Source: an uncultured Stakelama sp. (GTDB taxonomy: Bacteria; Pseudomonadota; Alphaproteobacteria; Sphingomonadales; Sphingomonadaceae). Taken from it: a stretch of DNA of 64,000 nucleotides. Positions within the stretch are counted from its first letter, which is position 1; every line of letters begins with the position of its first letter. Below, in pieces: positions 13,617-38,446 of this stretch. Under the pieces are notes generated by a model. It was not told the DNA's origin. It did not search any database and was given only the letters and a program-made list of their open reading frames with translations. The DNA is taken from assembly GCA_964649315.1 (NCBI GenBank), contig CAZYOU010000002.1:1379-65378 (forward strand), read 5' to 3'. The position numbers and the translations under genes were made by a program.

Positions 13617-15311
13617 ATGTTACTTATTGATGTTCTTCAATCAAGAAAAAATCAGATCATTTTTGCCGTTTTGATAGTCTCAATTTTAATGAGGCTAAAT
13701 GGTGCTACTTATGGTTTGCCAGCATTGCTCGATCCCGATGAACCGTTCTTTATGATTACCGGCTTGAAGATGATCAGGAACCAATCGTTCAACCCTGAAT
13801 GGTTTGGGCATCCGGGCACGACGATGCTTTATGCCGTCGCAACGATTGAAGCGAGTGTGTACGCCATCGGGCTGGCAAGCGGCCGTTTTGCCAGCGCGGA
13901 GGCATTTGCTGCTGCCGCTTATCAGGACCCTGGTATCATCTTCATGCCGGTCCGCTATTTTTTCATCCTTTGCGGCGCGGCGTGCGTGTTTCTCACAATC
14001 AGGATAACCGATCGCCTGTTCGGAACGCGTCCCGCGCTGATTGCGGGACTGTTACTGGCGATCAATCCGCTGCACATCAAATGGTCGCAGGTCGTGCGCA
14101 CCGACGTTCAGGCCACCGTTTTCATGCTGCTATGCGTGCTGGTGTCGATTACCGTGCTCGAACGGGGGCGGTGGCGCGATTATCTGATCGCCGGCGCGAT
14201 GGCGGGCTTGGCATGCGCCACCAAATGGCCCTGCGCGGTCATCATCCTGAGCGTGCTGGCGGCTGGTGTCGTAAGATTGACCCAGCAAACTGGGGAAGCG
14301 CGGCGTGAAATGCTGCGGATCGCAGCAGGTTTGATAGCTGCACCGGTCACGCTGGTGTTGGTCTCGCCCTATCTGCTCCTTGATCGCGCAACGGTGGTCA
14401 GTAATCTGGCGGGCGAGGCGCAATTGCATCATCTGGGTGCAACGGGCGGCAGTTTCTTATGGAATGTCGGCTGGTATCTCAGCAGTCCGCTCGGGGAATC
14501 GATCGGTGTTTTCGGCTTGGCGCTGGCAGCGGTGGGCATTGTCCTGATGGCCTATCGCTCACCCGGGGCGGCGGCGATACTGTTGCCGCCGGTGATCGTA
14601 TTTTTCGTCGCTATTTGCGGACAACGGATCATCTGGGGGCGCTGGATTTTGCCGCTGCTGCCCTTTGTGTCGATCTTTGCGGCGGTGGCGATCATGGCGT
14701 TTGCAGAGCAACTTCAACGCTTTGCGCGGCAACTCCCGCTGGTGGCGATGCAAGCGGCCGTTCTGGCTTTGATTGGCATACCGATGGTCGCCAAGGCGAA
14801 TGCTCAGGCAGTGGAGCGGCAGAACGATACCCGGTCGCGCGCTGCGGATTGGGCAAAGGCGAATGTGCCGCGCGGCAGCACGGTGATGCTCGAACATTTC
14901 GGGCTTGATCTGGTCGGGCAGCCCTGGGACTTTCTCACCCCGATCGGGGCGGCGGGCTGTGTCGATGCCACTGACTTTCTGAAGGGCAAAACAACTGCCG
15001 ATTTTGTTGGTGGGCTGCGCGGCAAATCGTCGGTGGTCGATCTTGGCACGATCGATCCGGCAAAGTTGTCCGGTTGCCGCGCCGATTTTGCCATTCTGTC
15101 AGATTTTGATCGCTACCGTGCTGAGGCATCCTTTTACGGGGAGGAGCTGAAAATCTATTACCGGTACATTCAGGGCGGTAAACAGGTAGCGCATTTCGCG
15201 CCAGCGGCGGGCATTTCGGGTGGCCCTGTGGTCAGAATCTTTCGGTTCGCGCCGCCCCGCAAGCCACGCCCTGCAGCAGGTCCCGGGTCGACCGTCGCGT
15301 CAAGCCAGTGA
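13617..15311 (+). CDS. GT-C fold glycosyltransferase (GT39/ArnT/PMT-like)
   Basis: N-terminal loop PDEP, multiple TM helices, LACATKW motif, C-terminal periplasmic domain. Confidence 0.8.
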   Translation: MLLIDVLQSRKNQIIFAVLIVSILMRLNGATYGLPALLDPDEPFFMITGLKMIRNQSFNPEWFGHPGTTMLYAVATIEASVYAIGLASGRFASAEAFAAAAYQDPGIIFMPVRYFFILCGAACVFLTIRITDRLFGTRPALIAGLLLAINPLHIKWSQVVRTDVQATVFMLLCVLVSITVLERGRWRDYLIAGAMAGLACATKWPCAVIILSVLAAGVVRLTQQTGEARREMLRIAAGLIAAPVTLVLVSPYLLLDRATVVSNLAGEAQLHHLGATGGSFLWNVGWYLSSPLGESIGVFGLALAAVGIVLMAYRSPGAAAILLPPVIVFFVAICGQRIIWGRWILPLLPFVSIFAAVAIMAFAEQLQRFARQLPLVAMQAAVLALIGIPMVAKANAQAVERQNDTRSRAADWAKANVPRGSTVMLEHFGLDLVGQPWDFLTPIGAAGCVDATDFLKGKTTADFVGGLRGKSSVVDLGTIDPAKLSGCRADFAILSDFDRYRAEASFYGEELKIYYRYIQGGKQVAHFAPAAGISGGPVVRIFRFAPPRKPRPAAGPGSTVASSQ

Positions 15312-15607: not shown

Positions 15608-16375
15608 GTGCAAGCAGTAATTCTGGCAGGCGGTTTGGGGACCCGCCTCGGTGAGGAGACGTCTATTCGTCCCAAACCGATGGTCGAAATCGGCGGTATG
15701 CCAATCCTTTGGCACATCATGAAGATTTATTCGGCGCATGGCGTCAACGACTTTATCATTTGCCTTGGATACAAGGGCTATTTGATCAAAGAATATTTTG
15801 CGAATTATTTTCTTCACACAGCCGATGTCACAATCGACCTCAAGAAAAACGCGATGGAAGTCCACGAAAACTGGAGCGAGCCATGGCGCATCACGATGGT
15901 CGAAACCGGCGCGAACACCATGACCGGTGGTCGCTTGAAAGCGATCCGGCCCTATTTAGATCCCGACGGTCCATTTTGTTTCACCTATGGCGACGGGGTC
16001 GCGTCAATTGATATCACCGCGTTAATTGCTGCGCACAAGGCGCATGGCAAAAGGGCAACGATTACAGCCGTTGCACCCCCGGGACGTTTCGGTGCGCTCG
16101 AATTCGCTGGCGATCACGTTACAAGTTTTCGTGAAAAGCCGGCCGGTGATGGTGGCCTTATCAATGGTGGCTTCTTTGTGGCTGATCCGTCGGTGCTTGA
16201 TCTGGTCGACGGACCGGACTCGGTCTGGGAGCAGAAGCCGCTCGAGGCACTGGCCGCAAGCCGTGAGCTGGTGGCGTATCGGCATGACGGGTTCTGGCAG
16301 GCAATGGATACGTTGCGTGATCGCAACTATCTCGAAGAGCTTTGGCAAAACGGCGCTCCCTGGAAAGTCTGGTGA
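15608..16375 (+). CDS. rfbF: Glucose-1-phosphate cytidylyltransferase
   Basis: LAGGLGTRLGEET..RPKPMVEIGG, TMTGGRLK, FWQAMDTLRD, APWKVW. Confidence 0.96.
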   Translation: MQAVILAGGLGTRLGEETSIRPKPMVEIGGMPILWHIMKIYSAHGVNDFIICLGYKGYLIKEYFANYFLHTADVTIDLKKNAMEVHENWSEPWRITMVETGANTMTGGRLKAIRPYLDPDGPFCFTYGDGVASIDITALIAAHKAHGKRATITAVAPPGRFGALEFAGDHVTSFREKPAGDGGLINGGFFVADPSVLDLVDGPDSVWEQKPLEALAASRELVAYRHDGFWQAMDTLRDRNYLEELWQNGAPWKVW

Positions 16376-17448
16376 GCAGCAACGCTTGGCGCGGCAAGCG
16401 CGTTTTCCTTACCGGGCATACCGGCTTCAAGGGCAGCTGGCTCGCGCTGTGGCTCGCTGATCTTGGTGCCGAGGTAACCGGCTATTCGCTGCCCGCGCCG
16501 ACGGATCCGAGTCTGTTCGATCAGGCGCAGGTTGGCGGCGTGCTGAAGCGCGATATTCGCGGTGATGTCCGCGACCTGGACGCGTTGCGGGTAGCGGTTG
16601 CCGAAGCCCAGCCCGAGGTTGTGTTCCATCTCGCTGCCCAACCCCTGGTCCGCTATTCCTACGCCGAACCGGTAGAGACCTATGCGACCAACGTCATGGG
16701 CACTGTCCATCTGCTCGAAGCGTGCCGCGCGGTGTCGAGCATCGCGGCGATCGTCTGCATCACCAGCGACAAATGCTATGAAAACCGCGAATGGATTTGG
16801 CCCTATCGCGAAAATGACCCGATGGGCGGTTATGATCCCTACAGCAGCAGCAAGGGGGCGGCTGAACTGGTGATCAACGCGTATCGGCAATCCTTTTTCG
16901 GCAAAGGTCCCGCGGTGGCCTCCGTGCGTGCCGGCAATGTGATCGGTGGTGGCGACTGGGCAGCAGACCGGCTGGTGCCGGATATCGTCCGCGCGCTTGA
17001 AGCGGGGCAGCGGCCATCGATCCGGTCGCCCGCTTCGGTGCGGCCTTGGCAGCATGTGCTTGAGGCGTTGGGTGGGTATCTGATGATCGCTGATCGCCTG
17101 CTCGCAGGAGACCGGACGGCGGCGACTGGGTGGAATTTCGGCCCGGCCGATGACGATACCCGGCCGGTCAGCTGGATTGTTGAGCGAATGCTGGGCGAAT
17201 GGGGTGCAAGCGGCTGGGATCGTCCCGTTTCAGAACAGCCTCATGAAGCGACACTGTTAACGCTGGACTGTTCGAAAGCGCGCCGTGAATTAGGCTGGCG
17301 GCCGGCGATGGGGCTGGGGCAGGCGCTGGCGATGGTTGTTGATTGGCATAAATCGGTCGCGAAGGGTATGTCGGCACGCGACGTTACGCTGACGCAGCTT
17401 CAGGATTACCGTGCATTGCAAGCCGCAAACTTAATGGAGCTAAATTGA
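16372..17448 (+). CDS. rfbG: CDP-glucose 4,6-dehydratase
   Basis: [34 protein letters not shown]; GTG 16372 overlaps the rfbF stop. Confidence 0.95.
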
Positions 17449-18809
17449 TGGAGTTGGACCTTGCCCCCAATGTTGAGGCGCTCGAAGCGATGACGGCGGG
17501 CTATGACGAGCAGCAATTCCGTCAGGCGATCCTCGACATGGTCGGCCAATATGCGCGCAATTTCCACGCGCCTAAGCCGTTCGTGTACGGCGAGAGCCCG
17601 GTCCCGGTGTCGGGCAAGGTGTACGGCGAAGCGGACATGAAGTCGCTGGTCGATTCCGCGCTTGATTTCTGGCTGACGACAGGGCGGTTCAACGAACAGT
17701 TCGAAGCCCAGCTTGCTGCGCGGATGGGATCGCGTTTCGCACTGACGGTCAATTCGGGTTCGTCGGCGAACCTGCTCGCGCTGTCGACCTTGTTCTCGCA
17801 CTATTTCCGCAGCGATGCGTTGAAGGCGGGCGACGAGATCATCACCGTGGCGACGGGCTTCCCAACCACGGTCAACCCGGCGCTTCAGTACGGCATGGTT
17901 CCGGTGTTCGTCGATGTCGATCTGCCGTCCTACAACATCAAGCCCGAAATGATCGAAGCCGCGGTCTCCAGCAAGACCCGCGCGATCATGCTGGCGCATA
18001 CGCTGGGCAATCCGTTCAATGTTGCGGAGGTGATGCGGGTCGCCGAGAAATATAATCTGTGGGTGGTCGAGGATTGCTGCGACGCACTCGGCGCCACCTA
18101 TAACGGCAAGGGCGTTGGCACGTTCGGCCATGTCGGCACGCTCAGCTTCTATCCCGCGCATCATATCACGATGGGTGAGGGCGGGGCGGTGTTTACCGAT
18201 AAGCCGATGATCAAGCGTGTGCTCGAATCGATGCGCGACTGGGGCCGCGATTGCTGGTGCGCGCCGGGCAAGGACAATACCTGCGGCAAGCGGTTTGAGC
18301 GTCGCCTCGGCGATTTGCCACACGGCTATGACCATAAATATACCTATAGCCATGCCGGGTATAACCTGAAGATCACCGATATGCAGGCCGCCGTCGGTGT
18401 GACGCAGCTTGCCCGCGCCGATGAATTCATCGCAGCCCGGCGCCGCAATTTCGCGCTGCTCACCGAGCTGCTCCGCCCGCTCGAGGACGTGCTGATGCTG
18501 CCGGAAGCGACGCCGAACAGTGATCCGTCATGGTTCGGTTATGCAATCACGGTTCGCCCGGGTGCGCATTTCACGCGCGACCAGTTGACCCGGCATCTCG
18601 ACGAGAACCGCATCGGCACGCGGCTGCTGTTTGGCGGCAACCTGCTGCGTCAGCCCTATATGAAGGGGCGTCCGCACCGCGTGGTCGGTGATCTGACCAA
18701 TGCCGATCTCGTAACGACGAACACCTTCTGGATTGGGCTCTATCCGGGCCTGACCGAGGGGCATTTGGGCTTTGCGGTCGATACGATTACGAAGTTCATT
18801 CGTGGCTGA
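17445..18809 (+). CDS. rfbH: CDP-4-keto-6-deoxyglucose 3-dehydrase (E1)
   Basis: [14 protein letters not shown] (His in place of the Schiff-base Lys), Fe-S cysteines EDCCD and WGRDCWC...C, YDHKY. Confidence 0.93.
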
Positions 18810-18863
18810 TACGGCGTTGGCCTATATTCTGCCTGCGCGGCATGACAATCGGATCGCGGCCAG

Positions 18864-19772
18864 ATGACGGCGCGTGCCCCGATTGTTATCACCGGTCCAA
18901 CGGGTTGGATCGGCATGGCTATGCTTGCCTGTCTCGCGCGGCAATCGGACGATTGGGCCGATGACGTTCGTTTGTTCGGATCGAGCGAGCGTGATGTCGC
19001 TGCGATTGATGGCACCGTCATCCCCATGCGGTCGCTTGATGCGCTGCAACCAGCCGACCTTGATGATGCGATCGTGATCCACCTTGCTTATTTGACCAAG
19101 GAAAAGGTGAATCTGCTGGGAGAGCGGCAGTTCACCGATACCAACCTCGCCATTGACGATATGGTGCTCGCGGCGCTGGCATCGGCAAAACCCCGCAGTG
19201 TTTTCGTTGCTTCGTCGGGCGCGGCAATGCTCGCGGCGCAAGGGCGCGATCGGCACCCTTATGGCCTGACAAAACTGCGCCAGGAAGATCGTTTTGCCGC
19301 CTGGGCCGTTGCCACGAACACGCCGCTGATCGTTGGCCGCATCTTCAATCTCGCTGGACCCTATATCAACAAGGTCGATTCCTACGCAATCGGATCGTTC
19401 GTCAATCAGGCGAAACGCTCGGGTTCTATCAGGATAGAGGCCGACGTTCCGGTGTTTCGCTCGTATTTGCATGTTGACGATCTTTGCGCGTTGATCTTAG
19501 GGGCGGGCCGAGCAGCGGTCGGTCGGTCTTCGCCAATCGACTTGTGTGGTGCCGAAACTGTTGAAATGAGCGATACGGCCCTGGCGGTGGCGCAGCAATT
19601 GGGCGGCAGCATCGCCGTTTCGCGCGGGCCGATCAATTGGGCGCAACCAAAAGCCTATCTTGGCGATTTTACCGACACCAAGGTGCTGGCGATGGAACTG
19701 AACCTGCCATTAGCCCCGTTTTCAGCCCAAGTGGCAGATACGGTGCGATGGATTGAACAGACAGGCCTTTGA
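18864..19772 (+). CDS. Extended SDR, NAD(P)-dependent NDP-sugar reductase/epimerase
   Basis: ITGPTGWIG and YGLTK (YxxxK); follows rfbFGH. Confidence 0.8.
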   Translation: MTARAPIVITGPTGWIGMAMLACLARQSDDWADDVRLFGSSERDVAAIDGTVIPMRSLDALQPADLDDAIVIHLAYLTKEKVNLLGERQFTDTNLAIDDMVLAALASAKPRSVFVASSGAAMLAAQGRDRHPYGLTKLRQEDRFAAWAVATNTPLIVGRIFNLAGPYINKVDSYAIGSFVNQAKRSGSIRIEADVPVFRSYLHVDDLCALILGAGRAAVGRSSPIDLCGAETVEMSDTALAVAQQLGGSIAVSRGPINWAQPKAYLGDFTDTKVLAMELNLPLAPFSAQVADTVRWIEQTGL

Positions 19773-19973
19773 TGGCCGGGAAGCTTGTATTACGAGCGTT
19801 TGAAGATTCGGGTAATTTGTTTGATTGCCGTGGAGTATGACCGTTTGAGATCATCGGATTTTCAGGCGTCATGTCGGGAAGTGATTTGAGTTTAAATCGA
19901 TTGAATGAGCGCACAGAGATAAGCACAGCGCAATCGGTCGATCATAAAAATAGGGTCCTGAAGGGGAAGTTCG

Positions 19974-21104
19974 ATGTCGAGTGAGATTTTCAACGATTTG
20001 TTCGTGCTGGAATTAGCGAACAATCACTGGGGTAAAATCGAACGCGGATTGAAGATTATTCACGACTTCGCAGAAGTTGTGAAAGCCAACAATGTGCGCG
20101 CGGCGATCAAGCTGCAGTTTCGCGACGTCGATAACTTCATCCATCAGGATTTCCGCGGCCGCGAGGACGTTCGGTATATCAAAAAGACGATCGATACGCA
20201 TTTGCCGTGGGACAGCCTGCGTCAGCTGGTGGAAGCGGTGCGCGATGCCGGCATGGTGACCATGGTCACGCCGTTCGACGAAGTGTCGGTCGACAAATGC
20301 GTCGAGTTCGGCGTGGACGTGCTGAAGATCGCCAGCTCGGATATCCGTGACAAGACTCTGTTGCGGAAGATGGCGGCATCGGGTCTGCCTGTGGTCGCGT
20401 CATCGGGCGGTGCCGATGCTGAGCATATTGACGCCCTCGTCAACTACTTCACGTCGCGCAACATCCCGTTCGCGCTCAACCATTGCGTGTCGCTCTATCC
20501 GTCGGAAGACAGCGAGCTGGAGCTGAACCAGATCGATTATCTGCGTCATCGCTACCCCGATATCGTGATCGGCCTGTCGACGCATGAACATCGCGATTGG
20601 CATGACTCGATTCTGATTGCCTATGGCAAGGGTGCGCGCACGTTCGAACGCCATATCGATATCGATTATGAAGGTGTGCCCGTCAGCGCCTATTGCACCA
20701 AGCCCGAACAGGCCGATGTGTGGTTCAAGGCGTTCAACAAGGCCAAGGAAATGTGCGGGGGCCCCGCCACCTTCCGTCGTGAGGTGCCCGAAAAGGAGCG
20801 CCGTTACCTCGATGCGTTGGTGCGCGGTACCTATGCCAAGCATGATCTGCCAGCCGGCCATGTGCTGACTGACGCTGATGTCTATCACATGGTCCCGTTG
20901 CTGAAGGGGCAGATCTCCACCCGCGAATTCGAAGGCGGTGAAAAGCTGACCCAGCCCGTCGCAGCGGGAACCGCCATCCAGCTCGCAGCGCTCGATGCGC
21001 CCTATGCCAAGGATGCTGCCCTTGCCGAACTGATTGCCGATCGCGGCATGGACGCGCCGGTTGAAGAGGCCACACAGACAATGAAGCGGGTCGCCGTTTC
21101 CTAA
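19974..21104 (+). CDS. NeuB-like PEP-dependent ulosonate synthase with SAF domain (divergent)
   Basis: LELANNHWG, KLQFR, KIASSD, HCVSLYP, GLSTHE, ERH; C-terminal AFP/SAF-like domain. Confidence 0.85.
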   Translation: MSSEIFNDLFVLELANNHWGKIERGLKIIHDFAEVVKANNVRAAIKLQFRDVDNFIHQDFRGREDVRYIKKTIDTHLPWDSLRQLVEAVRDAGMVTMVTPFDEVSVDKCVEFGVDVLKIASSDIRDKTLLRKMAASGLPVVASSGGADAEHIDALVNYFTSRNIPFALNHCVSLYPSEDSELELNQIDYLRHRYPDIVIGLSTHEHRDWHDSILIAYGKGARTFERHIDIDYEGVPVSAYCTKPEQADVWFKAFNKAKEMCGGPATFRREVPEKERRYLDALVRGTYAKHDLPAGHVLTDADVYHMVPLLKGQISTREFEGGEKLTQPVAAGTAIQLAALDAPYAKDAALAELIADRGMDAPVEEATQTMKRVAVS

Positions 21105-21238
21105 AGGCAGCTGTCCGTTTTATTCAGGCCTATCGATTTCCGGGTTGACCGCTTTCCCCTGGTGGTCGCCCGGTTTCGATTCTGGCGCTTTGTCGAATGA
21201 GGCGTTATCCAGCGTCAGGGCCGTTTCAGGAGCATCAA

Positions 21239-23092
21239 TTGAGCAAAATCCGTTTGTCCGATTACGTCGCCCAGATCCTTGTCGATCACGGCGTGCGTCA
21301 TGTCTTCATGCTGACGGGCGGCGGTGCGATGCACCTGAACGATGCGCTCGGCCGGTCCGAAGGCCTGCGTTATGTCTGCTGCCATCACGAGCAGGCGCTC
21401 GCCATGGCTGCCGAAAGCTATACGCGCCTGTCGGGGCGCATTGCCGCGGTGAACGTGACGACCGGGCCTGGGGGCATCAATGCGCTGAACGGTGTCCACG
21501 GTGCCTATACCGATTCAATCGCGATGATCGTGCTGTCAGGCCAGGTGAAGCGCGAAACGCTTGCGAGCAATGCGCCCGTGCGGCTGCGTCAGTTGGGCGA
21601 TCAGGAAGCCGATACGATCGCAATCGTGAAGCCGATCACCAAATTCGCTGCGATGGTCACCGATCCGCAGGATATTCGGTACCTTATGGAAAAGGCGCTT
21701 TGGCTGGCAACGACTGGTCGGCCGGGCCCGGTATGGATTGATATTCCGATCGATATTCAGGCCATGCCAATTGATCCGACGACGCTGCGCGGCTTCGATC
21801 CTCGGATCGAGGGCTATGGCCGTGATTTTGCGCTGCCGGCCGAATATGGCTGGCTAACGGGCGAGCCCCTGCGTGATGCCGCGCGCAGCGTTGTCGCCGC
21901 ACTTCGCCAAGCCGAGCGCCCTGTGCTGCTGCCCGGAACCGGCGTGCGGATCAGCGGATCGCACGATGTGTTTCTGAAGATCGTCGAAAAGCTCGGCATT
22001 CCCGTCGCGCCGGGCTGGAATGCGCAGGACGTGGTCGACGACAGCAACCCCTGCTATGTTGGCCGACCCGGCACCGTTGGCGATCGTGCCGGTAACTTTA
22101 CCGTCCAAAATGCTGACTTGCTGCTCGTGTTCGGGTGCCGCCTGAACATTCGCCAGATCAGCTATAATTTCGCGGCTTTCGCGCGTGCTGCCAAAAAGAT
22201 CATGGTCGATATCGACGCGGCCGAAATCGCCAAACCAACGCTATCGATCGACATGCCGATCCATGCCGATCTGAAGACCTTTTTGCCGATCCTGCTCGAA
22301 GAGCTGGAAAGCTATGAAGCGCCGGCTGCCCATAAAACCTATCTCGATTGGGCGATGGAGCGGCGCCACCGCTACAACCCCGTGCTGCCCGAATATTGGG
22401 AGACCAAGGGCATCATCAACCCCTATTGCTTCACCGAAGTGTTGTTCGATCAGTTGCGCGAGAACGAAGTGATCGTGATGGCCGATGCGACCGCGGCAGT
22501 GGTGACGGTGCAGGCCGCGAAGCTGAAGCCTGGTCAGCGCATCTTTTCGAACTCAGGCGCGGCATCGATGGGCTATGATCTGCCGGCCACGATCGGCGCA
22601 TGGCACGCAATGCCTGAAGGCGCAGACCGGATCATCTGCATGGCCGGTGACGGATCGATCATGCAGAACCTTCAGGAATTGCAGACCATTATCGGGCAGA
22701 ATATCCCGGCAAAGGTCTTTCTCTACAATAACTCCGGCTACCACTCGATCCGCCAGGCACAGCAGGCGTATCTGAACGGTTTCTCTGTCGGATGCGGGCC
22801 TGATTCTGGTGTTACCTTCCCCGAATTCAGCAAGATCGTTCAGGCATTCGGTTTTGCCTATGTATCGACGACCGATCATGCCGATATGGACGAGGCTATC
22901 CGCAAGACGCTTGCCACCCCCGGGCCGGCGGTGTGCGAGGTATTCATCGACAAGAGCCAGAACTTTGCCCCTAAGGTATCGTCGCGGCGGCTTGAAGACG
23001 GGTCGATGGTCACCGCGCCGATGGAGGATCTTGCGCCGTTCCTTTCGCGCGAGGAACTGCAGAGCAACATGCTGATCCCGTTGATCAATTAG
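21239..23092 (+). CDS. Thiamine-diphosphate-dependent enzyme (acetolactate synthase/YerE-like carboligase)
   Basis: Catalytic Glu in CHHEQA, TTGPG, and the GDGS...YNNSGY ThDP motif; TTG 21239 after RBS CAGGAG. Confidence 0.88.
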   Translation: MSKIRLSDYVAQILVDHGVRHVFMLTGGGAMHLNDALGRSEGLRYVCCHHEQALAMAAESYTRLSGRIAAVNVTTGPGGINALNGVHGAYTDSIAMIVLSGQVKRETLASNAPVRLRQLGDQEADTIAIVKPITKFAAMVTDPQDIRYLMEKALWLATTGRPGPVWIDIPIDIQAMPIDPTTLRGFDPRIEGYGRDFALPAEYGWLTGEPLRDAARSVVAALRQAERPVLLPGTGVRISGSHDVFLKIVEKLGIPVAPGWNAQDVVDDSNPCYVGRPGTVGDRAGNFTVQNADLLLVFGCRLNIRQISYNFAAFARAAKKIMVDIDAAEIAKPTLSIDMPIHADLKTFLPILLEELESYEAPAAHKTYLDWAMERRHRYNPVLPEYWETKGIINPYCFTEVLFDQLRENEVIVMADATAAVVTVQAAKLKPGQRIFSNSGAASMGYDLPATIGAWHAMPEGADRIICMAGDGSIMQNLQELQTIIGQNIPAKVFLYNNSGYHSIRQAQQAYLNGFSVGCGPDSGVTFPEFSKIVQAFGFAYVSTTDHADMDEAIRKTLATPGPAVCEVFIDKSQNFAPKVSSRRLEDGSMVTAPMEDLAPFLSREELQSNMLIPLIN

Positions 23093-23100
23093 GCCAAAAA

Positions 23101-23784
23101 ATGGCGACTGGTGCGCTGCTGTTCGATCTCGACGGAACGCTGGTCGACAGCGCTGCCGATATTGCGCGCGCGCTATCGATCGTAAGCATCGAACGCGGAG
23201 GGCAGGCGATTATGCCTGCCACCGTCCGTCCGCTGGTCAGCCTCGGCGCCATAACTCTTGTCAGGCAGGCGCTTGGGCCCGTGGCGGGCGTCGACTCCGA
23301 TGATCTGGCTGCATTTCGCGAAGTTCTGGCATCGATGCCCCCAGACCCGACGATCGTATTTGATGGCGTAGTCGATGCGCTGGAGGTTCTGACTGCGGCT
23401 GGATTTGCGATGGCGATCGTCACCAACAAGCCCGAATCGCTCAGCCGACAGCTGCTGAGTGCGTTGGCGCTCGATGGCTATTTCAGCGCCATTATCGGCG
23501 GGGACAGCGCGGTTGCGTCCAAGCCCGACCGCGCACCGCTCGATCTGGCATTGAAGCAGCTTGGCTTGTCGACCCGCGGAGCGTTGATGCTAGGCGATAG
23601 TGCGGTCGATGCCCAGGCAGCGCAAGCCTGCGGAGTACCGTTCATTCTGTACACCAAAGGTTATGACGCAGCAGGTTGCTGCAACTGGCCAGTGGCCGCG
23701 CGTTTTGCCGATTATGGACGACTGCCGTGCGTGATCAATGCGATGGTCGTTGATGCAGCTTTCCCGGGTCTGCTGGGGAGTTAA
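23101..23784 (+). CDS. HAD-superfamily phosphatase
   Basis: FDLDGTLVDS, VTNK, KP, LGDSAVD. Confidence 0.88.
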   Translation: MATGALLFDLDGTLVDSAADIARALSIVSIERGGQAIMPATVRPLVSLGAITLVRQALGPVAGVDSDDLAAFREVLASMPPDPTIVFDGVVDALEVLTAAGFAMAIVTNKPESLSRQLLSALALDGYFSAIIGGDSAVASKPDRAPLDLALKQLGLSTRGALMLGDSAVDAQAAQACGVPFILYTKGYDAAGCCNWPVAARFADYGRLPCVINAMVVDAAFPGLLGS

Positions 23785-23895: not shown

Positions 23896-25860
23896 ATGAT
23901 TTTAGCGCGGCTCTTCCATCCAATGCGCGTCAGCCGGTTGTTGTCGGGCATGGTCTCCTGTGCAGTTTTTGTGGTCGCGGCGGCTTCTATTCCTTCAGTC
24001 GCCAGCGCTCAGTCGATCGATCCCAACCGAGGAGGTGGCAATCTGCCAAATGGCTCGCCACTGAACGGTAGTTATGACAGTCAGGAGCGCGATACGACGG
24101 TAACTACCGCGCCGGAGCCGCCACCTCAATCGCAACAGATCGAAGCCGTAGACATCTCAGGCCGACGGAATCGTAACAACAATGACGATGATAATGAGGT
24201 GCGTCAGGATCGACGCGATCTTCCGCCGGTCGTCGATCCACGCCTGAAGCCAACGCCTCCGAGCGAATTCGAGAAGTATGTGGAAGGCAGGCTCGGCCGA
24301 CGGCTGCCGCGTTTCGGAGCAAATTTGCTCCTACCAGAAATTCGTGACTATGCGGTGCCGGCGACGGCGACGGTACCACCTGGCTACATCCTCAATATCG
24401 GCGATGTCCTAACGATTGCACTTACGGGATCAATCGACGGCACTTTCACCGTTCAGGTTGATACCGATGGCCGAATTTTTCTTCCCAAGATCGGTTCGGT
24501 CTCCGTTGTCGGGGTTCGCTACGCTGATTTGAAAAGCTTGGTTTCGCGCGCCATCGGCACCCAGTATCGCGGCTACACTGTCACTGTCGCAGTCAAGCAG
24601 CTGCGCGGGTTGCGCGTATACGTCACCGGCTTCGCCAACAATCCGGGCGCCTATACTGTTAACAGCCTGTCGTCCTTGCTCAACGCGACGCTCGCCGCAG
24701 GTGGACCTTCATCAGGCGGAAGTTTGCGCTCCGTAAAGCTTTATCGCAACGGCAGTGAGATTGCCGATTTCGACTTGTATGACCTTTTGATCCGAGGCGA
24801 TCGAAGCGGCGACGCGATCCTCCAGAATGAAGACGTGTTGTTCATCCCGCCGCTCGGGAAGCAGGTTGCGGTGGTCGGTGGCGTCAACACCGAAGGCGTG
24901 TACGAAACGAAAGAGGGCGAAACGATCGAGTCCGTTCTCGCTTATGCGGGTGGACCGAATGTTCTCGCCGATGTCTCTCGTGTCATGCTTTACCGGGCAG
25001 GTGACCCCGACAAGACAAGCGGGCAGGAAGTGCTGCTTGCGGAGCAGGGCAAGCTGCCCGTCGCGGGCGGTGACATTATCCAGATGTTCACCACAGGATC
25101 ACTCGTGCGTCCAATCGATCGACAGACGGTCGTGGTCCGGATCGAGGGCGAAGTACGACGGCCTGGCAATTACGTCGTGCCGCCGAACACAGATTTGGCG
25201 CGCGTTGTTGAACTTGCCGGCGGATACACCCCCCAAGCCTATATCTTCGGGACGAAGGTCGAGCGCGTTTCTATCCGGGCGCAGCAGCGCGAGAGTTTTC
25301 TCGAGGCCATCAAGCAGCTCGAGATCAGCCTGGCGTCGACCCCGCTGACCAGCGCGCGTGTGGACACGACCAATAGGGACGTCGAACTCAACTCGGCTCG
25401 CGCTGTGCTTGATCGCTTGCGGCAAGCCGAACCCGATGGACGGTTGGTGCTCGATCTTGATGTCAACGCCACGCAATTACCGGGTGGGTTGACCATGGAA
25501 AGCAATGACCGGATCATCATCCCAGCGCGGCCGGTAACGGTGGGGGTATTCGGGGCGGTCTATCGTCCTGCAACGTTTATCATCAACCCGGCAAAGCGCA
25601 CTCGCATCCGTGACTATATCGACCGTGCCGGTGGTGGTTTGCGATCAGCAGATCGCGGGAGTATTTTCGTCGTTCGCGCCAGTGGCGATGTGATCTCGAA
25701 ACGGCGCGGCGCGTTAAACGCAGCTGCTCTTCCGGGCGATGTAGTCTTTGTGCCCGTCAAGACTCAGTCGACATCACTTCTCGCCAAGATTCGTGATATC
25801 AGCCAGGTGATCTTCCAGCTCGGCATCGGCGCAGCAGCGTTCGTGGCGGTGGCTAGGTGA
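23896..25860 (+). CDS. Polysaccharide export protein with multiple SLBB domains (KpsD/Wza-like)
   Basis: Signal peptide, Y.L..GD.L.I Poly_export motif, repeated V.V.G.V..PG.Y SLBB units. Confidence 0.85.
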   Translation: MILARLFHPMRVSRLLSGMVSCAVFVVAAASIPSVASAQSIDPNRGGGNLPNGSPLNGSYDSQERDTTVTTAPEPPPQSQQIEAVDISGRRNRNNNDDDNEVRQDRRDLPPVVDPRLKPTPPSEFEKYVEGRLGRRLPRFGANLLLPEIRDYAVPATATVPPGYILNIGDVLTIALTGSIDGTFTVQVDTDGRIFLPKIGSVSVVGVRYADLKSLVSRAIGTQYRGYTVTVAVKQLRGLRVYVTGFANNPGAYTVNSLSSLLNATLAAGGPSSGGSLRSVKLYRNGSEIADFDLYDLLIRGDRSGDAILQNEDVLFIPPLGKQVAVVGGVNTEGVYETKEGETIESVLAYAGGPNVLADVSRVMLYRAGDPDKTSGQEVLLAEQGKLPVAGGDIIQMFTTGSLVRPIDRQTVVVRIEGEVRRPGNYVVPPNTDLARVVELAGGYTPQAYIFGTKVERVSIRAQQRESFLEAIKQLEISLASTPLTSARVDTTNRDVELNSARAVLDRLRQAEPDGRLVLDLDVNATQLPGGLTMESNDRIIIPARPVTVGVFGAVYRPATFIINPAKRTRIRDYIDRAGGGLRSADRGSIFVVRASGDVISKRRGALNAAALPGDVVFVPVKTQSTSLLAKIRDISQVIFQLGIGAAAFVAVAR

Positions 25861-26957
25861 CGCCGCCACGCAGTATAATGACAACAATTGTTCACAGCCA
25901 ATGGTTGCGGGATGATCGACGCCGGCGCGGGATCATCGCGCTGCTGCTTGGCGTATTTGCGCTGCTCAGCTTTTATCCCGAACGCTATCGAGCTGCGGTC
26001 GCGCTGACTCCAACGGATCCGGCGAGCTTGGGTCTCAGCAGCGCGTTGGGGCAATTTGGCGCCGTCAACAGCATTTTCGGCAATCAGACCGCGGTCGAAG
26101 TTGCCTTGCGTGTGGCGCGCAGCATCTATGTCCGCGATGCTGTCATCGACAAGGTGAACCTGATCAAGCGGAACGGGTTTCTCAGCCGCGTTGCAGCCAA
26201 TAGGTGGTTGGAGCGTAATGTCGACATTCGCATCCAGCGCGGTGGCATCATCGAGATATCTACCCGCAACTCTGACCCTGAACTTGCGAAACTGATTATT
26301 GAGAGCTTCACAAACGCGACGCGCCGTCGCCTTGCGGAGATCGGTAAGGAGCAGACGCAATATAAGCGTACGGTCCTGACCGAGTTGGTCGAAGAGACCG
26401 ATAAACGGCTGGCCAGGGCGCAAGAAAATTATGATCGTTTTCGGCGGCGTACGCGCTATGCCCAGCCGACAAGCGCGATCAGTGCGATCGGTGAGCGGAT
26501 ACCGCAGCTGCAGCAGCTGGTGAAAGCAAAAGAGGTCGCTCTTTATGCGGCTCGGCAATTCTATACCGATGATAGCCTGCAGATCCGTCAAATCCTCGCG
26601 GAGCTCAAGGCGCTAAGAAGCCAGCTCGCAGAGGCGCAAACGGTTCGCCCCGGTGAAAAATACTCGGTCGGTATGGTGATTGAGGAGTCAACTGAAGCGC
26701 GGGATCTGGAGCGCAAATTGTTCATCGCTCGTGCGCTGTACGACAATTACACGCGTTTCTTGGAGGGGACGTCGGTTGAAGACCTTACCCAGACCGCTGT
26801 TTTGCGCGTGCTTGAACCGCCCTTTGTCGACTCGACCCGCCAGATAAATCTGATTCCCGCGCTGCTCGGGATTTTGGTTTTGCTCGGCGGGCTGGCGGTT
26901 GAATTCTATTTGGCTCGTCCGCCTGTCGGGAATCGACAGGGTCCGCTTGAAGTTTAA
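25857..26957 (+). CDS. Polysaccharide co-polymerase (KpsE/Wzz-like)
   Basis: N- and C-terminal TM helices around a periplasmic coiled coil; no kinase domain; GTGA overlap. Confidence 0.75.
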   Translation: MTPPRSIMTTIVHSQWLRDDRRRRGIIALLLGVFALLSFYPERYRAAVALTPTDPASLGLSSALGQFGAVNSIFGNQTAVEVALRVARSIYVRDAVIDKVNLIKRNGFLSRVAANRWLERNVDIRIQRGGIIEISTRNSDPELAKLIIESFTNATRRRLAEIGKEQTQYKRTVLTELVEETDKRLARAQENYDRFRRRTRYAQPTSAISAIGERIPQLQQLVKAKEVALYAARQFYTDDSLQIRQILAELKALRSQLAEAQTVRPGEKYSVGMVIEESTEARDLERKLFIARALYDNYTRFLEGTSVEDLTQTAVLRVLEPPFVDSTRQINLIPALLGILVLLGGLAVEFYLARPPVGNRQGPLEV

Positions 26958-26961
26958 TGCG

Positions 26962-27897
26962 ATGACGCCACCGGAAATCTCCGTCGTTATCCCTTGCTAT
27001 AACGAGCGTGAAAACGCGGCCAACATCGCGCAGGCCGTGATCGATCAGCTTGAGCCGATCTGTCAGTCGTTCGACATCCTGTTCATCGATAATGCGTCGA
27101 CCGACAACACCGTCGCGATCATCAAGGAGCTTTGTGCCAAGGATGATCGCATTCGCCTGATCGCCAATACGCGCAATTTCGGCCAGATGCGGTCGCCGAC
27201 GCATATGGTGTATACGGCACGGGGGGACGCTGTCATCGGCATCTGCGCCGATTTTCAGGACCCACCCGAGATGATCCCTGCCTTTGTCGAGCGCTGGCGT
27301 GCGGGTGCCGATATCGTCCTTGGTGTCCGCAAGTCTGAGGTAGCAGGTTTCGTGACGACGGTATTCCGGCGCGTTTCCTACTGGTTTGCACAGCGCTTCG
27401 GGGATTATCCGCTGGTGCCGAACGCGACGGGTTTTGGCTTGTACGACCAGAAGGTCGTCCGGCAGATCGCTGCAATGAACGAGCCCGAGCCGTTTTTTCG
27501 CGGGATGCTGGTGGAGACCGGCTATCGCATCGAAACACTGGTATATGAACGTCCGGTGCGTGCGCGGGGCATCTCATCAAACACTTTCTTCGTATTGCTC
27601 GATTTTGCGCTGTCGAGTCTGGCAAGCTTTTCGAAAAAGATCATCCGCGTACCGTTCTTCATTGGCGTTGGCGTTTGCGGGTTGGCAGGATTGGCGATGC
27701 TTGGTGCCCTGATCGCGCTGCTGACGGGCGCTGCGGTGTTGCCATGGCTCATTGCGGCCGGCGTCGAACTTCAATTTGGCATATTGTTCATTTTTCTGGG
27801 AATTATGGGTGATCAGGTCCGCTTGATATCCGAGCGGACACGCGGCACGCCGCTCGTATTCGAACGCGAGCGGGTTAACTTCCCTGAGGATTATTGA
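26962..27897 (+). CDS. GT2 polyprenol-phosphate glycosyltransferase (GtrB-like)
   Basis: VIPCYNE, DNASTD, RNFG, DFQDPPE, two C-terminal TM helices. Confidence 0.85.
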   Translation: MTPPEISVVIPCYNERENAANIAQAVIDQLEPICQSFDILFIDNASTDNTVAIIKELCAKDDRIRLIANTRNFGQMRSPTHMVYTARGDAVIGICADFQDPPEMIPAFVERWRAGADIVLGVRKSEVAGFVTTVFRRVSYWFAQRFGDYPLVPNATGFGLYDQKVVRQIAAMNEPEPFFRGMLVETGYRIETLVYERPVRARGISSNTFFVLLDFALSSLASFSKKIIRVPFFIGVGVCGLAGLAMLGALIALLTGAAVLPWLIAAGVELQFGILFIFLGIMGDQVRLISERTRGTPLVFERERVNFPEDY

Positions 27898-28289
27898 GTG
27901 TGGCGGCGATTGCGCACATTAATCGTTTGGCAGACATCATTCGATTCTATCAGGCCGCAGCACTGAACGCAGCGTTTGGCTTCGGCCTGTACTCGGTATT
28001 TGTCTATGCCGGGATGAATCTGTTTGTGGCGCAGATTGTGGCGCACTGTATTGGGGTGGCATTTAACTACGTCACCTATAGTCAATATGCGTTTCGTGGG
28101 TCTGCGCCAGCAAAGCTCCGTTTTCTCGGTGCCTATGCCATCAACTATGTTGTCGGGCTGCTCGCCTTGTTGCTCACGAGCAGCTTCATCGCGTCGCCGT
28201 ATCTGGCGATGGCGGTTGCGATTGTCATTGCCACCGTTATCAACTTTGTCGCGCTGAAATACGGCGTTTTTACAAAGCCAGCGCCATGA
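27894..28289 (+). CDS. GtrA-family flippase
   Basis: 131 aa with 4 TM helices and an RF...FNY..Y..YAF pattern; TTGA overlap with GT2. Confidence 0.85.
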   Translation: MSVAAIAHINRLADIIRFYQAAALNAAFGFGLYSVFVYAGMNLFVAQIVAHCIGVAFNYVTYSQYAFRGSAPAKLRFLGAYAINYVVGLLALLLTSSFIASPYLAMAVAIVIATVINFVALKYGVFTKPAP

Positions 28290-29665
28290 GGTTGCAGGCG
28301 GGCATCACATCGAGCCAGCGCTGGATTGAACGCATTCTGGCGCTCCTGGTCTTCTCGGGTATTGCCTATGCCATGGGTTTCCTCTGGTGGAATGCCTATC
28401 TTCCGGCGCCATTTTTTTACCAGCCGTCCGACACATATATGGACTGGTTTAACGTCGCGGAATGGGCGCATGACCCCGGAGCCTATGACAGCTGGGGTTC
28501 CGTCTATCTTCCGCTCAACTTTCTGGTCGCCAAGCTGTTCAGTCTTAGCGCCTGTTATATTCCTGGCAGCCCGGCTGGAAATGCCATTTACGCACGCTCC
28601 TGCGACTGGCTAAGCCTCTTCACCATTCACGCCGCTTTCATATTATGCGCCGTGATAGCATCTCTAAGCTTTGTGAAACATGATAGACCGACCGCCTTTT
28701 ACCGCGCATTCGCGCTAAGCGCTGGTTTGCCGATGACTGTCGCTCTTGAACGCGGCAATCTGATCATCCTTGCTTTTCTCGCCTTCATGCTGGGTTATGG
28801 CCCGCTGCTGCGGGCAGCGCGATGGCGCTGGGTTGCGTTGGGATTGGCGGTCAACTTCAAGATTTATCTCGTCGCGTCGGTGTTCGGGCATTTGCTGCGT
28901 CGTCGGTGGCGCGCATTTGAGGGGGCGTTGCTCGCGGTCGTCATCGTCTATCTGCTGACGTACGTCGGCCTCGGTATCGGGTCGCTGACGGAAATCTCTC
29001 GCAATATCGCCGTCTTCACGCAGGTGATCGAATCTCAAGGCTTTGCAGACGTTTTCTATTCGGCGTCTTATAACCCCCATATCACCGTCCTCACCAATGT
29101 GCGGGCCCCGGTTGACGCAATTCTGGGCCGGGATTTGACCGAACCTCTGCTGTACTGGGTCTATTTCTCCACAAAGATCACCCAGGCCATTATTGCGGCT
29201 GCTGCCATCGCCATCTGGCTAAGGCCTGAGGTGGTTTCGAATGTTCGTGCAACAAATCTCGCCCTCTGCTTCGCGTTCCTGAGCGCCGAATCTTACGGGT
29301 ACAGTTATATATTTGTGATTTTCCTGACCTTCTTCGAAAAATGGCAGGGAACAGGAAGGATTGTCGCGATTGTCGCAGCCTATGCGCTGTGCTTTCACTT
29401 CGAATATCCGTTGGCCAATGTCATTTCGCTCCCCGACGATTCCTATCTTGGCGGCCGACGGGTGGAAGTTCCGCTGAACATCGCGCTCGGCGCTTTCGTT
29501 CGACCAGGGGTGTTTTATCTGATCCCATTCGCACTGTCTTGCGCAACGATCGCGGCTGTGTGGAAGGATATCCAGGCGCAGGGATGGAAGTCGCGGTGGC
29601 GCTATCGCCATGATCTGCCGATTATGGTTGGTCCCGGAGCAGCTTTACCCCCGGGTGGGTCATAA
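28286..29665 (+). CDS. GT-C membrane glycosyltransferase (GT87/DUF2029-like, GtrC role)
   Basis: Polytopic; DW.N...YLP, ERGN and KIY motifs typical of GT87; ATGA overlap with GtrA. Confidence 0.65.
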   Translation: MRLQAGITSSQRWIERILALLVFSGIAYAMGFLWWNAYLPAPFFYQPSDTYMDWFNVAEWAHDPGAYDSWGSVYLPLNFLVAKLFSLSACYIPGSPAGNAIYARSCDWLSLFTIHAAFILCAVIASLSFVKHDRPTAFYRAFALSAGLPMTVALERGNLIILAFLAFMLGYGPLLRAARWRWVALGLAVNFKIYLVASVFGHLLRRRWRAFEGALLAVVIVYLLTYVGLGIGSLTEISRNIAVFTQVIESQGFADVFYSASYNPHITVLTNVRAPVDAILGRDLTEPLLYWVYFSTKITQAIIAAAAIAIWLRPEVVSNVRATNLALCFAFLSAESYGYSYIFVIFLTFFEKWQGTGRIVAIVAAYALCFHFEYPLANVISLPDDSYLGGRRVEVPLNIALGAFVRPGVFYLIPFALSCATIAAVWKDIQAQGWKSRWRYRHDLPIMVGPGAALPPGGS

Positions 29666-29711
29666 GAAGATTGAACGTGATGATCGCGGTGAAACGAACC
29701 TACAAGCGCGA

Positions 29712-30461
29712 CTAGAGCTTGGTCACCAGTGCCTGTGCGGTCTTCATCGCAAGCGGGCGTTCGGGCTTGTCGGCAAAGAACTCGTCAACGGCGCGTCGTG
29801 CACCGGGGCAGGATGCAAATCCGTAATCGTCGAATACGATCGATCCGCCCGAGGTGAGCCGCGGATAGACAAAGCTCAAACAGTCGAGAACGCCCTGATA
29901 CAAATCCAGATCGATATGGGCGAAACAGAATTTGCGATCTTCCAGGCCGGCAAACGTATCAGGCACCCAGCCCTTGCGGTAATGGATGAAGGGTTCGGTG
30001 CCGACAACGGCCTGCACGCCCTCGACAGAGGTATCGGCGAAATCGCCCTTGCTGTGGCGATCGACCTGCGAAACTTTTTCCATCCCTTCAAACGAGTCGA
30101 ACAGGTAGAAATTCTTGTCGGTTCTTGGGCCGATCGCTTCACGGATGAGCTTGGCGGTGCCCCCCTGAAATACGCCGGCTTCCATCACGTCGCCTTCGAC
30201 ATGGAGTGACTGCGAGAGCGCTTGCCAGATTGTCCAGCAACGCTCGATGTCGACGACGGTATAGGGTGAAACGCGGTTGAATAGCGCGACAAAATCAGGT
30301 GCCAACCAGGGCGAAAAATGCGGTGCGTACTGATCCGCGTCGGGAATGTCTTTCACGATCAGCATCTTGTACAACTGACCCCACAAAATTGGCGGTGCCA
30401 AAGACTTCGCTACGCCTACCCAGCGCATACGGGTCGTTCGGAGAGTTACGATTTCCGCCAT
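29712..30461 (-). CDS. TylF/MycF-family O-methyltransferase
   Basis: EAGVFQGG, LFDSFEG, KGW..DT, HIDLDLY, FDDYG; RBS AAAGGTGG before ATG 30461. Confidence 0.88.
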   Translation of the reverse strand: MAEIVTLRTTRMRWVGVAKSLAPPILWGQLYKMLIVKDIPDADQYAPHFSPWLAPDFVALFNRVSPYTVVDIERCWTIWQALSQSLHVEGDVMEAGVFQGGTAKLIREAIGPRTDKNFYLFDSFEGMEKVSQVDRHSKGDFADTSVEGVQAVVGTEPFIHYRKGWVPDTFAGLEDRKFCFAHIDLDLYQGVLDCLSFVYPRLTSGGSIVFDDYGFASCPGARRAVDEFFADKPERPLAMKTAQALVTKL

Positions 30462-30568
30462 TTTCGATCCACCTTTCAACCGTTCGCCTAACACCGATGA
30501 TAACCGCGCGGAAGTCCCCGCACTTTGGGTGTCTGAGGCGTCAATACTGTCCGCTTCTCCGCGCAGCC

Positions 30569-31600: not shown

Positions 31601-31697
31601 AAGATGCCTCGGCTGGTGGGAAGATGGCGCGCCTTACGGCTCGCTCCCGTCGAATATGGGATGGGCATTACGGGTGCAAGTCCCGCAGCGCCAGTGC

Positions 31698-33383: not shown

Positions 33384-33402
33384 CAGCTGATCGCCACCAG
33401 CA

Positions 33403-35351: not shown

Positions 35352-35542
35352 TGATGATCTCTCCTTCTTCGTATTGCAGCCAAGCCCCGTGACGATGGCA
35401 GGCTCGCTGCCATTTCCGCCAATCAAGCCGCGCTAGGGTTATTGACGATGTGTGTGGGGGAAACAGGCCACCGCTGAACGCCGATTTTCGTTTTGCCTAG
35501 CAGCAGCCCGGGTAAAGCGGCAAGGGGAGCAGCAGCCCGAGA

Positions 35543-37212: not shown

Positions 37213-37230
37213 GGCACTGGCCGCCGCGTA

Positions 37231-38241: not shown

Positions 38242-38446
38242 CGATCTGCCCCCCACCACGTTTTCTACACCGAAAACGCCGCACATTTAACCCCGCTTTG
38301 TGGTCGTCGATCAGCCTTCACCATGCAAGCAGGATTGGCCTATCCGAGCCAATTCTGCGCGAGATGCTGAGTTTTTTGCGCCAAGCCGAGGGGGGTAGCC
38401 GGTAAACACGAGGCGGGTAGGGCGGTCGCGCGACGACTCGGGCGAC

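Follow-up and report, generated by a model that had tools for sequence, protein, structure and literature searches.

What is made by an operon in which genes for a cytidine diphosphate (CDP)-linked dideoxy sugar are followed by a relative of sialic acid synthase, a thiamine diphosphate (ThDP) enzyme and a phosphatase? The question is raised by a 64,000-nucleotide stretch of DNA (hereafter the window) from an uncultured Stakelama sp. (contig CAZYOU010000002.1 of assembly GCA_964649315.1), in which seven consecutive open reading frames (ORFs) on the + strand, at 15608-23784, encode RfbF, RfbG, RfbH, a short-chain dehydrogenase/reductase (SDR), a NeuB-like protein, a ThDP enzyme and a HAD-IA protein. 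A sequence-only reading of the window had picked out this set, and all seven were recovered as ORFs in that interval and on that strand. From the comparisons described below, we consider it reasonably probable that the operon makes a CDP-activated C4-acyl-branched 3,6-dideoxyhexose of the erwiniose, caryophyllose and gastriose type, with the acyl donor supplied by the NeuB-like enzyme instead of a pyruvate aldolase.

We assigned the genes using curated NCBIfam equivalog cut-offs and Pfam domain scans of the window proteins. All three enzymes of the CDP-3,6-dideoxyhexose core (cytidylyltransferase, 4,6-dehydratase and E1 3-dehydrase) exceeded their equivalog cut-offs. The glucose-1-phosphate cytidylyltransferase gene rfbF/ddhA (15608..16375) matched TIGR02623 over its full length (439 bits vs a cut-off of 300), and the CDP-glucose 4,6-dehydratase gene rfbG/ddhB (16342..17448) matched TIGR02622 (485 bits vs 278); the latter match begins only at residue 16, from which the true start of rfbG probably lies slightly downstream of 16342. 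The third gene, rfbH/ddhC (17445..18809), encodes an E1-type, pyridoxamine phosphate- and [2Fe-2S]-dependent CDP-4-keto-6-deoxyglucose 3-dehydrase (NF011936, 708 bits vs 423). Its product contains a C-X57-C-X-C-X7-C motif (C212/C270/C272/C280), which we take to be the iron-sulfur motif of E1 enzymes and which is kept in 20 of 21 orthologues. The statement that RfbFGH make CDP-4-keto-3,6-dideoxyglucose omitted the E3 reductase step, without which these three enzymes do not finish the 3-deoxygenation and for which no enzyme was found here (see below).

The ThDP gene (21197..23092) encodes TPP_N, TPP_M and TPP_C domains, a GDG...NN cofactor motif (MAGDGS...YNNSGY) and the cofactor-activating Glu in HHEQ. 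We ranked this protein and the NeuB-like protein by searches against all PDB sequences. The ThDP enzyme was best matched by JanthE (8rph; E 9e-121, 408 bits, aligned over 15-626, ~45% identity at full length), in an alignment that displays JanthE's unusual CDG motif, whereas plant acetohydroxyacid synthase (AHAS) scored 228 bits and PpYerE (5ahk) 208 bits. JanthE has been characterised as a YerE-like enzyme with ketones among its acceptors (PMC12188165); it couples 2-keto acids of varied lengths to them, and its physiological substrates are reported as unknown (PMC12188165, PMC12247030). The window's enzyme also missed the cut-off of every acetolactate synthase model, with a top score of 321 vs 538. 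In a tree, the ThDP enzymes encoded beside NeuB-like genes in various genomes formed one large and one small clade, and the AHAS-like paralogue encoded elsewhere in the Stakelama genome, which is 32% identical to the window's enzyme, was placed far away. The divergent NeuB-linked clade was likewise closest to JanthE (273 bits vs 206 for PpYerE). The cut-offs, the PDB ranking and the tree rule out a plain AHAS, and in sequence the ThDP enzyme resembles the characterised YerE-like enzymes more than it does acetolactate synthases.

These results bear on the idea that no branching takes place, with the SDR reducing C4 to yield CDP-abequose or CDP-paratose and the ThDP gene encoding a surplus acetolactate-synthase-like protein that takes no part in sugar synthesis. 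The SDR, which fits no specific family, could be a C4 ketoreductase, as this idea needs. We nonetheless consider it very improbable, given that the genome has its own AHAS-like paralogue, that the ThDP enzyme fails all AHAS cut-offs, and that its gene is conserved beside RfbH and the NeuB-like gene across phyla.

The NeuB-like gene (19974..21104; PF03102, 118 bits) encodes a putative phosphoenolpyruvate (PEP)-dependent synthase, which resembles NeuB, PseI and LegI in its PF03102 TIM barrel, its SAF-like C-terminal domain and its PEP- and metal-binding residues. It differs from them in scoring far below the equivalog cut-offs, at 110 vs 340 bits for the PseI model and 91 vs 400 for the NeuB model. 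Its best PDB match was 3g8r (218 bits), while the NeuB of Neisseria meningitidis (NmNeuB; 1xuu) scored 68 bits. The motifs GLSTHEH (residues 200-206) and FERHID (224-229) had been interpreted as altered NeuB motifs. The change from SDH to STH is a true difference, but ERH is also found in NmNeuB and both metal-binding histidines are kept, making the motifs a weak argument.

We therefore base the comparison on an active-site alignment of 28 NeuB-like orthologues with NmNeuB and 3g8r. Equivalents of NmNeuB E25, K53, Q55, T110, K129, S132, S154, Y186, S213, H215, E234 and H236 were kept in all aligned orthologues. In contrast, D247, R314, N184, E134 and the GPD motif, which presumably contact the sugar in NeuB, were replaced in the NeuB-like family, mostly invariantly; D247 corresponds to Ser238 and R314 to Val307 in the window's protein, each replacement being invariant or conservative across the family. 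Since the PEP- and metal-binding residues are kept and the presumed sugar-side positions are changed, the enzyme should carry out PEP chemistry on an aldehyde other than that used by NeuB.

A neuA, neuC, pse or leg gene set is absent, as the sequence-only reading had stated, and linked cytidine monophosphate (CMP)-transferase and hexosamine-modifying genes were not found; the genome holds only one NeuB-family gene. The far sub-cut-off scores and the missing partner genes rule out a sialic, pseudaminic or legionaminic acid pathway. The annotations 'acetolactate synthase' for the ThDP gene and 'N-acetylneuraminate synthase' for the NeuB-like gene are probably both wrong.

The two genes downstream and upstream of this pair were assigned less specifically. 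The HAD protein (23101..23784; PF13419, 108 bits) resembles phosphoglycolate phosphatase (Gph) but falls below its cut-off (TIGR01449, 154 vs 180 bits), and its closest PDB match is 2nyv with 89 bits. All four HAD-IA catalytic motifs are present (DLDGT, TNK and GDSxxD among them), and by these motifs it is a HAD-IA phosphatase. The divergent extended SDR (18864..19772; PF01370, Epimerase, 65 bits) carries TGxxGxxG and YxxxK motifs, had no NCBIfam match and showed only weak PDB matches. It is a candidate YerF-like reductase of the side-chain ketone.

To define how widely these genes occur together, a search for co-occurrence having been suggested by the sequence-only reading, we scanned one genome per species and obtained 36 loci with NeuB-like orthologues at 55-87% identity (37 with the window). 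They belong to Sphingomonadales, Rhodoblastus, Bacteroidota, Acidobacteriota, Actinomycetota, Saccharimonadota and Betaproteobacteria. One locus consists of a 2-kb contig only; at each of the 35 informative ones, which come from at least seven phyla, the NeuB-like gene has a ThDP gene no more than about 4.5 kb away. RfbH is encoded within 10 kb of the NeuB-like gene at 24 loci, and it was found elsewhere in 7 of 10 other genomes tested, in several of them a few kb past the fetched flank. An orthologue of the HAD gene stands beside the NeuB-like or ThDP gene at 20 of the 37 loci, including loci in Bacteroidota and Acidobacteriota. Further recurrent partners are an SDR of one of three types, with orthologues of the window's SDR at 12 loci and a different type at others, and a family 2 glycosyltransferase (GT2) resembling GtrB. 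The cassette is thus real and conserved. At one locus, in a long-read metagenome-assembled genome (MAG; L018, 8689-12962), the rfbH and ThDP genes beside the NeuB-like gene are each frameshifted, through either sequencing error or decay of the cassette.

This linkage also informs a second alternative, in which the operon makes two products for one glycan: a pyruvate-using YerE would give yersiniose, and the NeuB-like and HAD enzymes would give a Kdn- or Kdo-like acid, activated by an unlinked CMP-transferase. A NeuB-family enzyme paired with a phosphatase follows the logic of Kdn-9-phosphate and Neu5Ac-9-phosphate synthesis, and a KdsB-type CMP-transferase is encoded 13 kb away in the window. 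Pyruvate-using YerE-type enzymes exist as well (PMC9306805). However, this kdsB, the sole strong CTP_transf_3 gene of the genome, sits in its own kpsF-kdsB-kdsA operon on the opposite strand, and at the 36 other loci no CTP_transf_3 (CMP-transferase), KdsA or KpsF homologue was found within 10 kb of the NeuB-like gene. Genes for independent sugars would be unlikely to remain adjacent in 35 of 35 loci across phyla, and the ThDP enzyme is nearer to JanthE, which takes long donors, than to PpYerE (408 vs 208 bits). We regard the two-product explanation as unlikely. The kpsF-kdsB-kdsA operon itself occupies 35543-38286 on the - strand, 12-15 kb from the HAD gene, with SIS and CBS domains in KpsF, CTP_transf_3 in KdsB and DAHP_synth_1 in KdsA, and it includes no kdsC. 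It occurs in a lineage expected to lack lipopolysaccharide (LPS).

We next compared the operon with known branched-sugar clusters. The JanthE locus of Janthinobacterium sp. HH01 (L043, 6805-15782) encodes RfbF, RfbG, RfbH (59% identical to the window's RfbH), JanthE, an SDR, an acetaldehyde dehydrogenase, an HMGL/DmpG-type aldolase, a further SDR and a GT2, and it matches the erwiniose-type layout of ErwE/F/J/I in Pectobacterium atrosepticum (Steitz et al., 2022; PMC9306805). In the scheme proposed for such clusters, an aldolase forms a 4-hydroxy-2-oxo acid, which a ThDP enzyme joins to C4 of CDP-4-keto-3,6-dideoxyglucose before a reductase completes the branch (PMC9306805). The same study worked backwards from erwiniose, caryophyllose and gastriose to a biosynthesis that also accounts for their CH2 group, and tested ErwE, MMAR_2332 and MyGE (PMC9306805). 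The window shares with the erwiniose-type and JanthE clusters the order RfbF-RfbG-RfbH, then a YerE-like ThDP enzyme and SDRs, and an expected donor that is a 4-hydroxy-2-oxo acid with CH2 at C3. It differs from them in encoding the NeuB-like and HAD proteins in the position of their DmpG/BphI-type pyruvate aldolase and acetaldehyde dehydrogenase. Searches of the window, the genome and the 36 other loci with the aldolase and acetaldehyde dehydrogenase of the JanthE cluster gave no homologue of either, MMAR_2331-type aldolases not having been searched for by sequence. Because the frame is shared with the JanthE cluster and the aldolase and dehydrogenase homologues are absent, the NeuB-like and HAD enzymes appear to replace the aldolase pair. 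A NeuB-type reaction, in which PEP and an aldehyde yield a 4-hydroxy-2-oxo acid and phosphate, gives the same product class as a pyruvate aldolase and is irreversible. Relative to the aldolase route, the reaction in the window would thus be irreversible, and the donor would probably be longer, more hydroxylated and made via a phosphate ester. As to JanthE itself, the DmpF/DmpG-like pair in its cluster predicts 4-hydroxy-2-oxovalerate and CDP-4-keto-3,6-dideoxyglucose as the natural substrates.

The other known systems differ from the window in what supplies the donor or in the fate of the product. Yersiniose A synthesis in Yersinia pseudotuberculosis (DdhABCD, YerE and YerF) has the same acceptor pathway and the same C4 branching by a ThDP enzyme followed by reduction; YerE, however, uses pyruvate to set a two-carbon branch, and that cluster includes ddhD for E3 but lacks NeuB-like and HAD genes. 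In caryophyllose (M. marinum, MMAR_2331/2332) and gastriose (M. gastri, MygI/MyGE), polyhydroxylated C6-C7 side chains, in the size range expected for the window's sugar, arise from 2-keto-3-deoxy acids by YerE-like ligation (PMC9306805). Their donors are made by enzymes of the aldolase/citrate-lyase family and not of the NeuB family, a comparison drawn from descriptions and not from sequences. The Kdn-9-phosphate synthase and phosphatase of Bacteroides thetaiotaomicron and the animal pair NANS/NANP have a NeuB-family enzyme act on a phosphorylated aldose ahead of a HAD phosphatase. Their product is CMP-activated and becomes a glycan unit, whereas the cassette has no linked CMP-transferase and its NeuB-like product would be a substrate of the ThDP enzyme.

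A further likeness came from the best structural match of the NeuB-like enzyme. The structure 3g8r is the NeuB part, the N-terminal two-thirds, of a 495-amino-acid NeuB-SAF-cupin protein of Chromobacterium violaceum (L045, 10001-11488), and was deposited by structural genomics as 'probable spore coat polysaccharide biosynthesis protein E', with no assigned function. Its locus reads RfbF-RfbG-RfbH-[NeuB-cupin]-ThDP-C-methyltransferase-NUDIX-radical SAM-SDR. The protein is the closest solved structure to the window's enzyme and shares with it the STHE motif and the RfbFGH/ThDP gene context; it differs in its fused cupin and in having a C-methyltransferase, a NUDIX and a radical SAM gene in place of the HAD gene. 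The 3g8r group is a second, independent NeuB-like subfamily, sister to that of the window, with the same linkage. The fused cupin is possibly a sugar isomerase. In some members of the sister subfamily the cupin matches a lyxose-isomerase model, which hints that the aldose is made from a ketose and is a lead only.

Taken together, these comparisons suggest the following pathway. RfbF, RfbG and RfbH would convert glucose-1-phosphate and cytidine triphosphate (CTP) to CDP-4-keto-3,6-dideoxyglucose, with a housekeeping ferredoxin/reductase assumed to serve as the electron donor of RfbH, none being encoded nearby. The NeuB-like enzyme would condense PEP with a common aldose phosphate to a 3-deoxy-2-ulosonate phosphate, from which the HAD-IA enzyme would remove the phosphate. 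The ThDP enzyme, judging from its tested homologues, would then decarboxylate this 2-keto acid and add the acyl-anion equivalent to the C4 ketone, creating a tertiary alcohol, and the SDR would reduce the new side-chain ketone. An aldose of n carbons would give a side chain of n+2, such that C3-C6 aldose phosphates would lead to 5-8-carbon branches and to sugars of 11-14 carbons. Around the NeuB-like genes we found no conserved accessory gene for making an unusual aldehyde. At divergent loci the accessory genes are limited to those for glycosyltransferases, methyltransferases, SDRs and one radical SAM enzyme; the aldose is therefore likely a common phosphate (glyceraldehyde-3-phosphate, erythrose-4-phosphate, a pentose-5-phosphate or a hexose-6-phosphate). 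Finally, the GtrB/ArnC-like GT2 encoded downstream would load the sugar onto polyprenyl phosphate, GtrA would flip it, and a GT-C glycosyltransferase would attach it to a glycan exported via Wza and a polysaccharide co-polymerase.

The flow from the NeuB-like enzyme through the HAD and ThDP enzymes to the SDR had been proposed from the window alone. It remains the best reading on the comparative evidence, namely the grouping with JanthE, the displacement of the aldolase pair and the 35 of 35 linkage, but its general logic is not new. The accompanying statement that no characterised pathway combines such enzymes has to be withdrawn in its broad form, the logic having been published in 2022 for erwiniose, caryophyllose and gastriose (PMC9306805). 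What is most likely new is the use of a PEP-dependent synthase and a phosphatase as the source of the donor. A full-text literature search combining branched sugar, thiamine and neuraminate synthase returned nothing, and the searched literature contained no NeuB-family synthase and phosphatase in this role; its coverage excludes Lanza 2024 (JanthE) and Krug 2024 (which surveyed over 200 YerE-like clusters in silico), where a prior mention is possible.

Several observations count against the proposed pathway. We found no E3 reductase of the RfbI/AscD/DdhD (Fer2-FNR) type in the window, the 95.6%-complete genome or the 37 loci, after scanning the genome with the Pfam Fer2 model and both genome and loci with a motif. 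Without an E3 partner for RfbH the synthesis of the acceptor is incomplete on paper, although the JanthE and C. violaceum clusters likewise have no E3 gene. Three of the ten genomes tested for a distant RfbH have none detectable (L025, L031 and L038; genomes G304, G306 and G309) despite their NeuB-like/ThDP pair; their MAGs are possibly incomplete, or the branch may be added to a different sugar there. The window's SDR bears only a weak likeness to the SDR adjoining JanthE (26% identity over 133 residues). In the ThDP tree, JanthE falls outside both NeuB-linked clades, with modest support, and the donor preference of JanthE is for this reason not transferable to them. Lastly, 17 of the 37 loci have no HAD orthologue, and when NeuB-like sequences from loci with and without HAD were compared for a phosphate-binding signature, no alignment column discriminated between them. 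With the HAD missing at these loci and no HAD-linked sequence difference, a phosphorylated substrate of the NeuB-like enzyme is tentative.

The same loci bear on a third alternative, in which the same enzymes act in another order or on another acceptor. The NeuB-like enzyme might use the nucleotide sugar as its substrate, adding PEP to the C4 ketone to form a -CH2-CO-COOH branch as in shewanellose; alternatively, the ThDP enzyme might first place an aldehyde or ketone branch, taken from glyoxylate, pyruvate or another short donor, which the NeuB-like enzyme would lengthen. A keto acid borne on the sugar would next be decarboxylated or ligated further by the ThDP enzyme. Linkage among the NeuB-like, ThDP and RfbH genes is explained equally well by this order, a bulky CDP-sugar substrate would suit the change of all the NeuB sugar-binding positions, the HAD is dispensable at those 17 loci, and shewanellose offers a natural three-carbon keto-acid branch on C4. 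NeuB-family enzymes, however, are known to attack aldehydes and not ketones, and the conserved HAD would be left without a role. The one-for-one replacement of the aldolase pair within the JanthE frame also points to a free keto-acid donor, and 'branch first, then aldol' was tested and rejected for ErwE, which refuses pyruvate (PMC9306805). We consider this alternative improbable, though somewhat less so than two separate products.

Returning to a free keto-acid donor made by the NeuB-like enzyme, a broader form of the proposal, on which we are evenly divided, is that the NeuB-like family comprises unrecognised PEP-dependent 3-deoxy-2-ulosonate(-phosphate) synthases whose product is the acyl donor of a ThDP enzyme and not a glycan residue. 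Sialic-acid-type and yersiniose-type chemistry would thereby be joined to build 11- to 14-carbon branched sugars that are chemically undescribed; in this sphingomonad, expected to be LPS-free, they would be delivered on a lipid carrier (GtrB-like GT2, GtrA and GT-C) as a periplasmic decoration of capsule or glycolipid, and the cassette would have spread across phyla by horizontal transfer. The acyl-branched surface sugars yersiniose, erwiniose, caryophyllose and gastriose are rare and matter as antigens; their biosynthesis was rationalised only in 2022, and with aldolase-derived donors only. If the proposal is true, PEP-driven, irreversible donor synthesis would be a second entry route to acyl-branched sugars, and undescribed 11- to 14-carbon sugars would be predicted widely among environmental bacteria, with cultured Sphingomonas, Novosphingobium, Rhodoblastus and Chromobacterium among them. 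A large orphan branch of the NeuB family, to which the solved structure 3g8r belongs, would also gain a function, and new donor/enzyme pairs would become available for chiral tertiary alcohols, in a field where JanthE and ErwE are being engineered.

Genes for export and transfer flank the operon, all on the + strand. Upstream, at 13617..15311, lies a PMT_2-family GT-C membrane glycosyltransferase (PF13231, 60 bits; PF02366, 40 bits; ~9 hydrophobic segments) with orthologues at 8 related loci, a candidate periplasmic transferase for a lipid-linked sugar. Downstream are a Wza-like outer-membrane polysaccharide export protein (23896..25860; Poly_export and SLBB domains) and an inner-membrane export protein resembling KpsE and chain-length determinants (25857..26957; weak TIGR03007 and TIGR01010 matches). 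These are followed by the PgfS/ArnC/GtrB-type GT2 (26899..27897; PF00535, 90 bits; NF047588, 146 bits, and ArnC, 79 bits, both under cut-off), which has a homologue at 24 loci, frequently immediately 3' of the ThDP gene, and which probably transfers the completed sugar to polyprenyl phosphate. Next come a small GtrA-family membrane protein, a putative flippase for lipid-linked sugars (27894..28289; PF04138, 45 bits), and a polytopic membrane protein recognised by hydropathy (28286..29665; unmatched in Pfam and NCBIfam, with at least 7 hydrophobic segments), which has orthologues at 16 loci and is possibly a second transferase or a polymerase. This set of neighbours suggests that the completed sugar is loaded onto polyprenyl phosphate, flipped and attached outside the cytoplasm.

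The whole block from 12 to 30 kb has a G+C content of 55-59%, vs 62-67% in its flanks, and NeuB-like orthologues are rare among relatives, with 3 carriers in 300 other species of the family and none in 3 congeneric species. Given the low G+C content and this sporadic distribution, the block looks like a horizontally acquired surface-glycan island. In the same-genus genomes, which we compared for the island boundaries, the genes flanking the block were not syntenic, and a promoter and terminator scan of the operon gave nothing exceeding chance. DNA matching the window was detected only in biofilter, drinking-water and wastewater metagenomes, and a look for transcripts turned up no RNA runs.

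Further downstream, at 33403-35426 on the - strand, a flavoprotein of the Old Yellow Enzyme family overlaps an RmlD-like reductase, an unusual pairing for a sugar region; no homologues of this pair were found near the NeuB-like gene at the other loci. Between it and the polytopic membrane protein, the interval 29610-33434 holds four ORFs (199, 238 and 228 amino acids on the + strand and 578 amino acids on the - strand) that matched nothing in Pfam or NCBIfam and lack predicted membrane segments; homologues of two of them occur at a few related loci.

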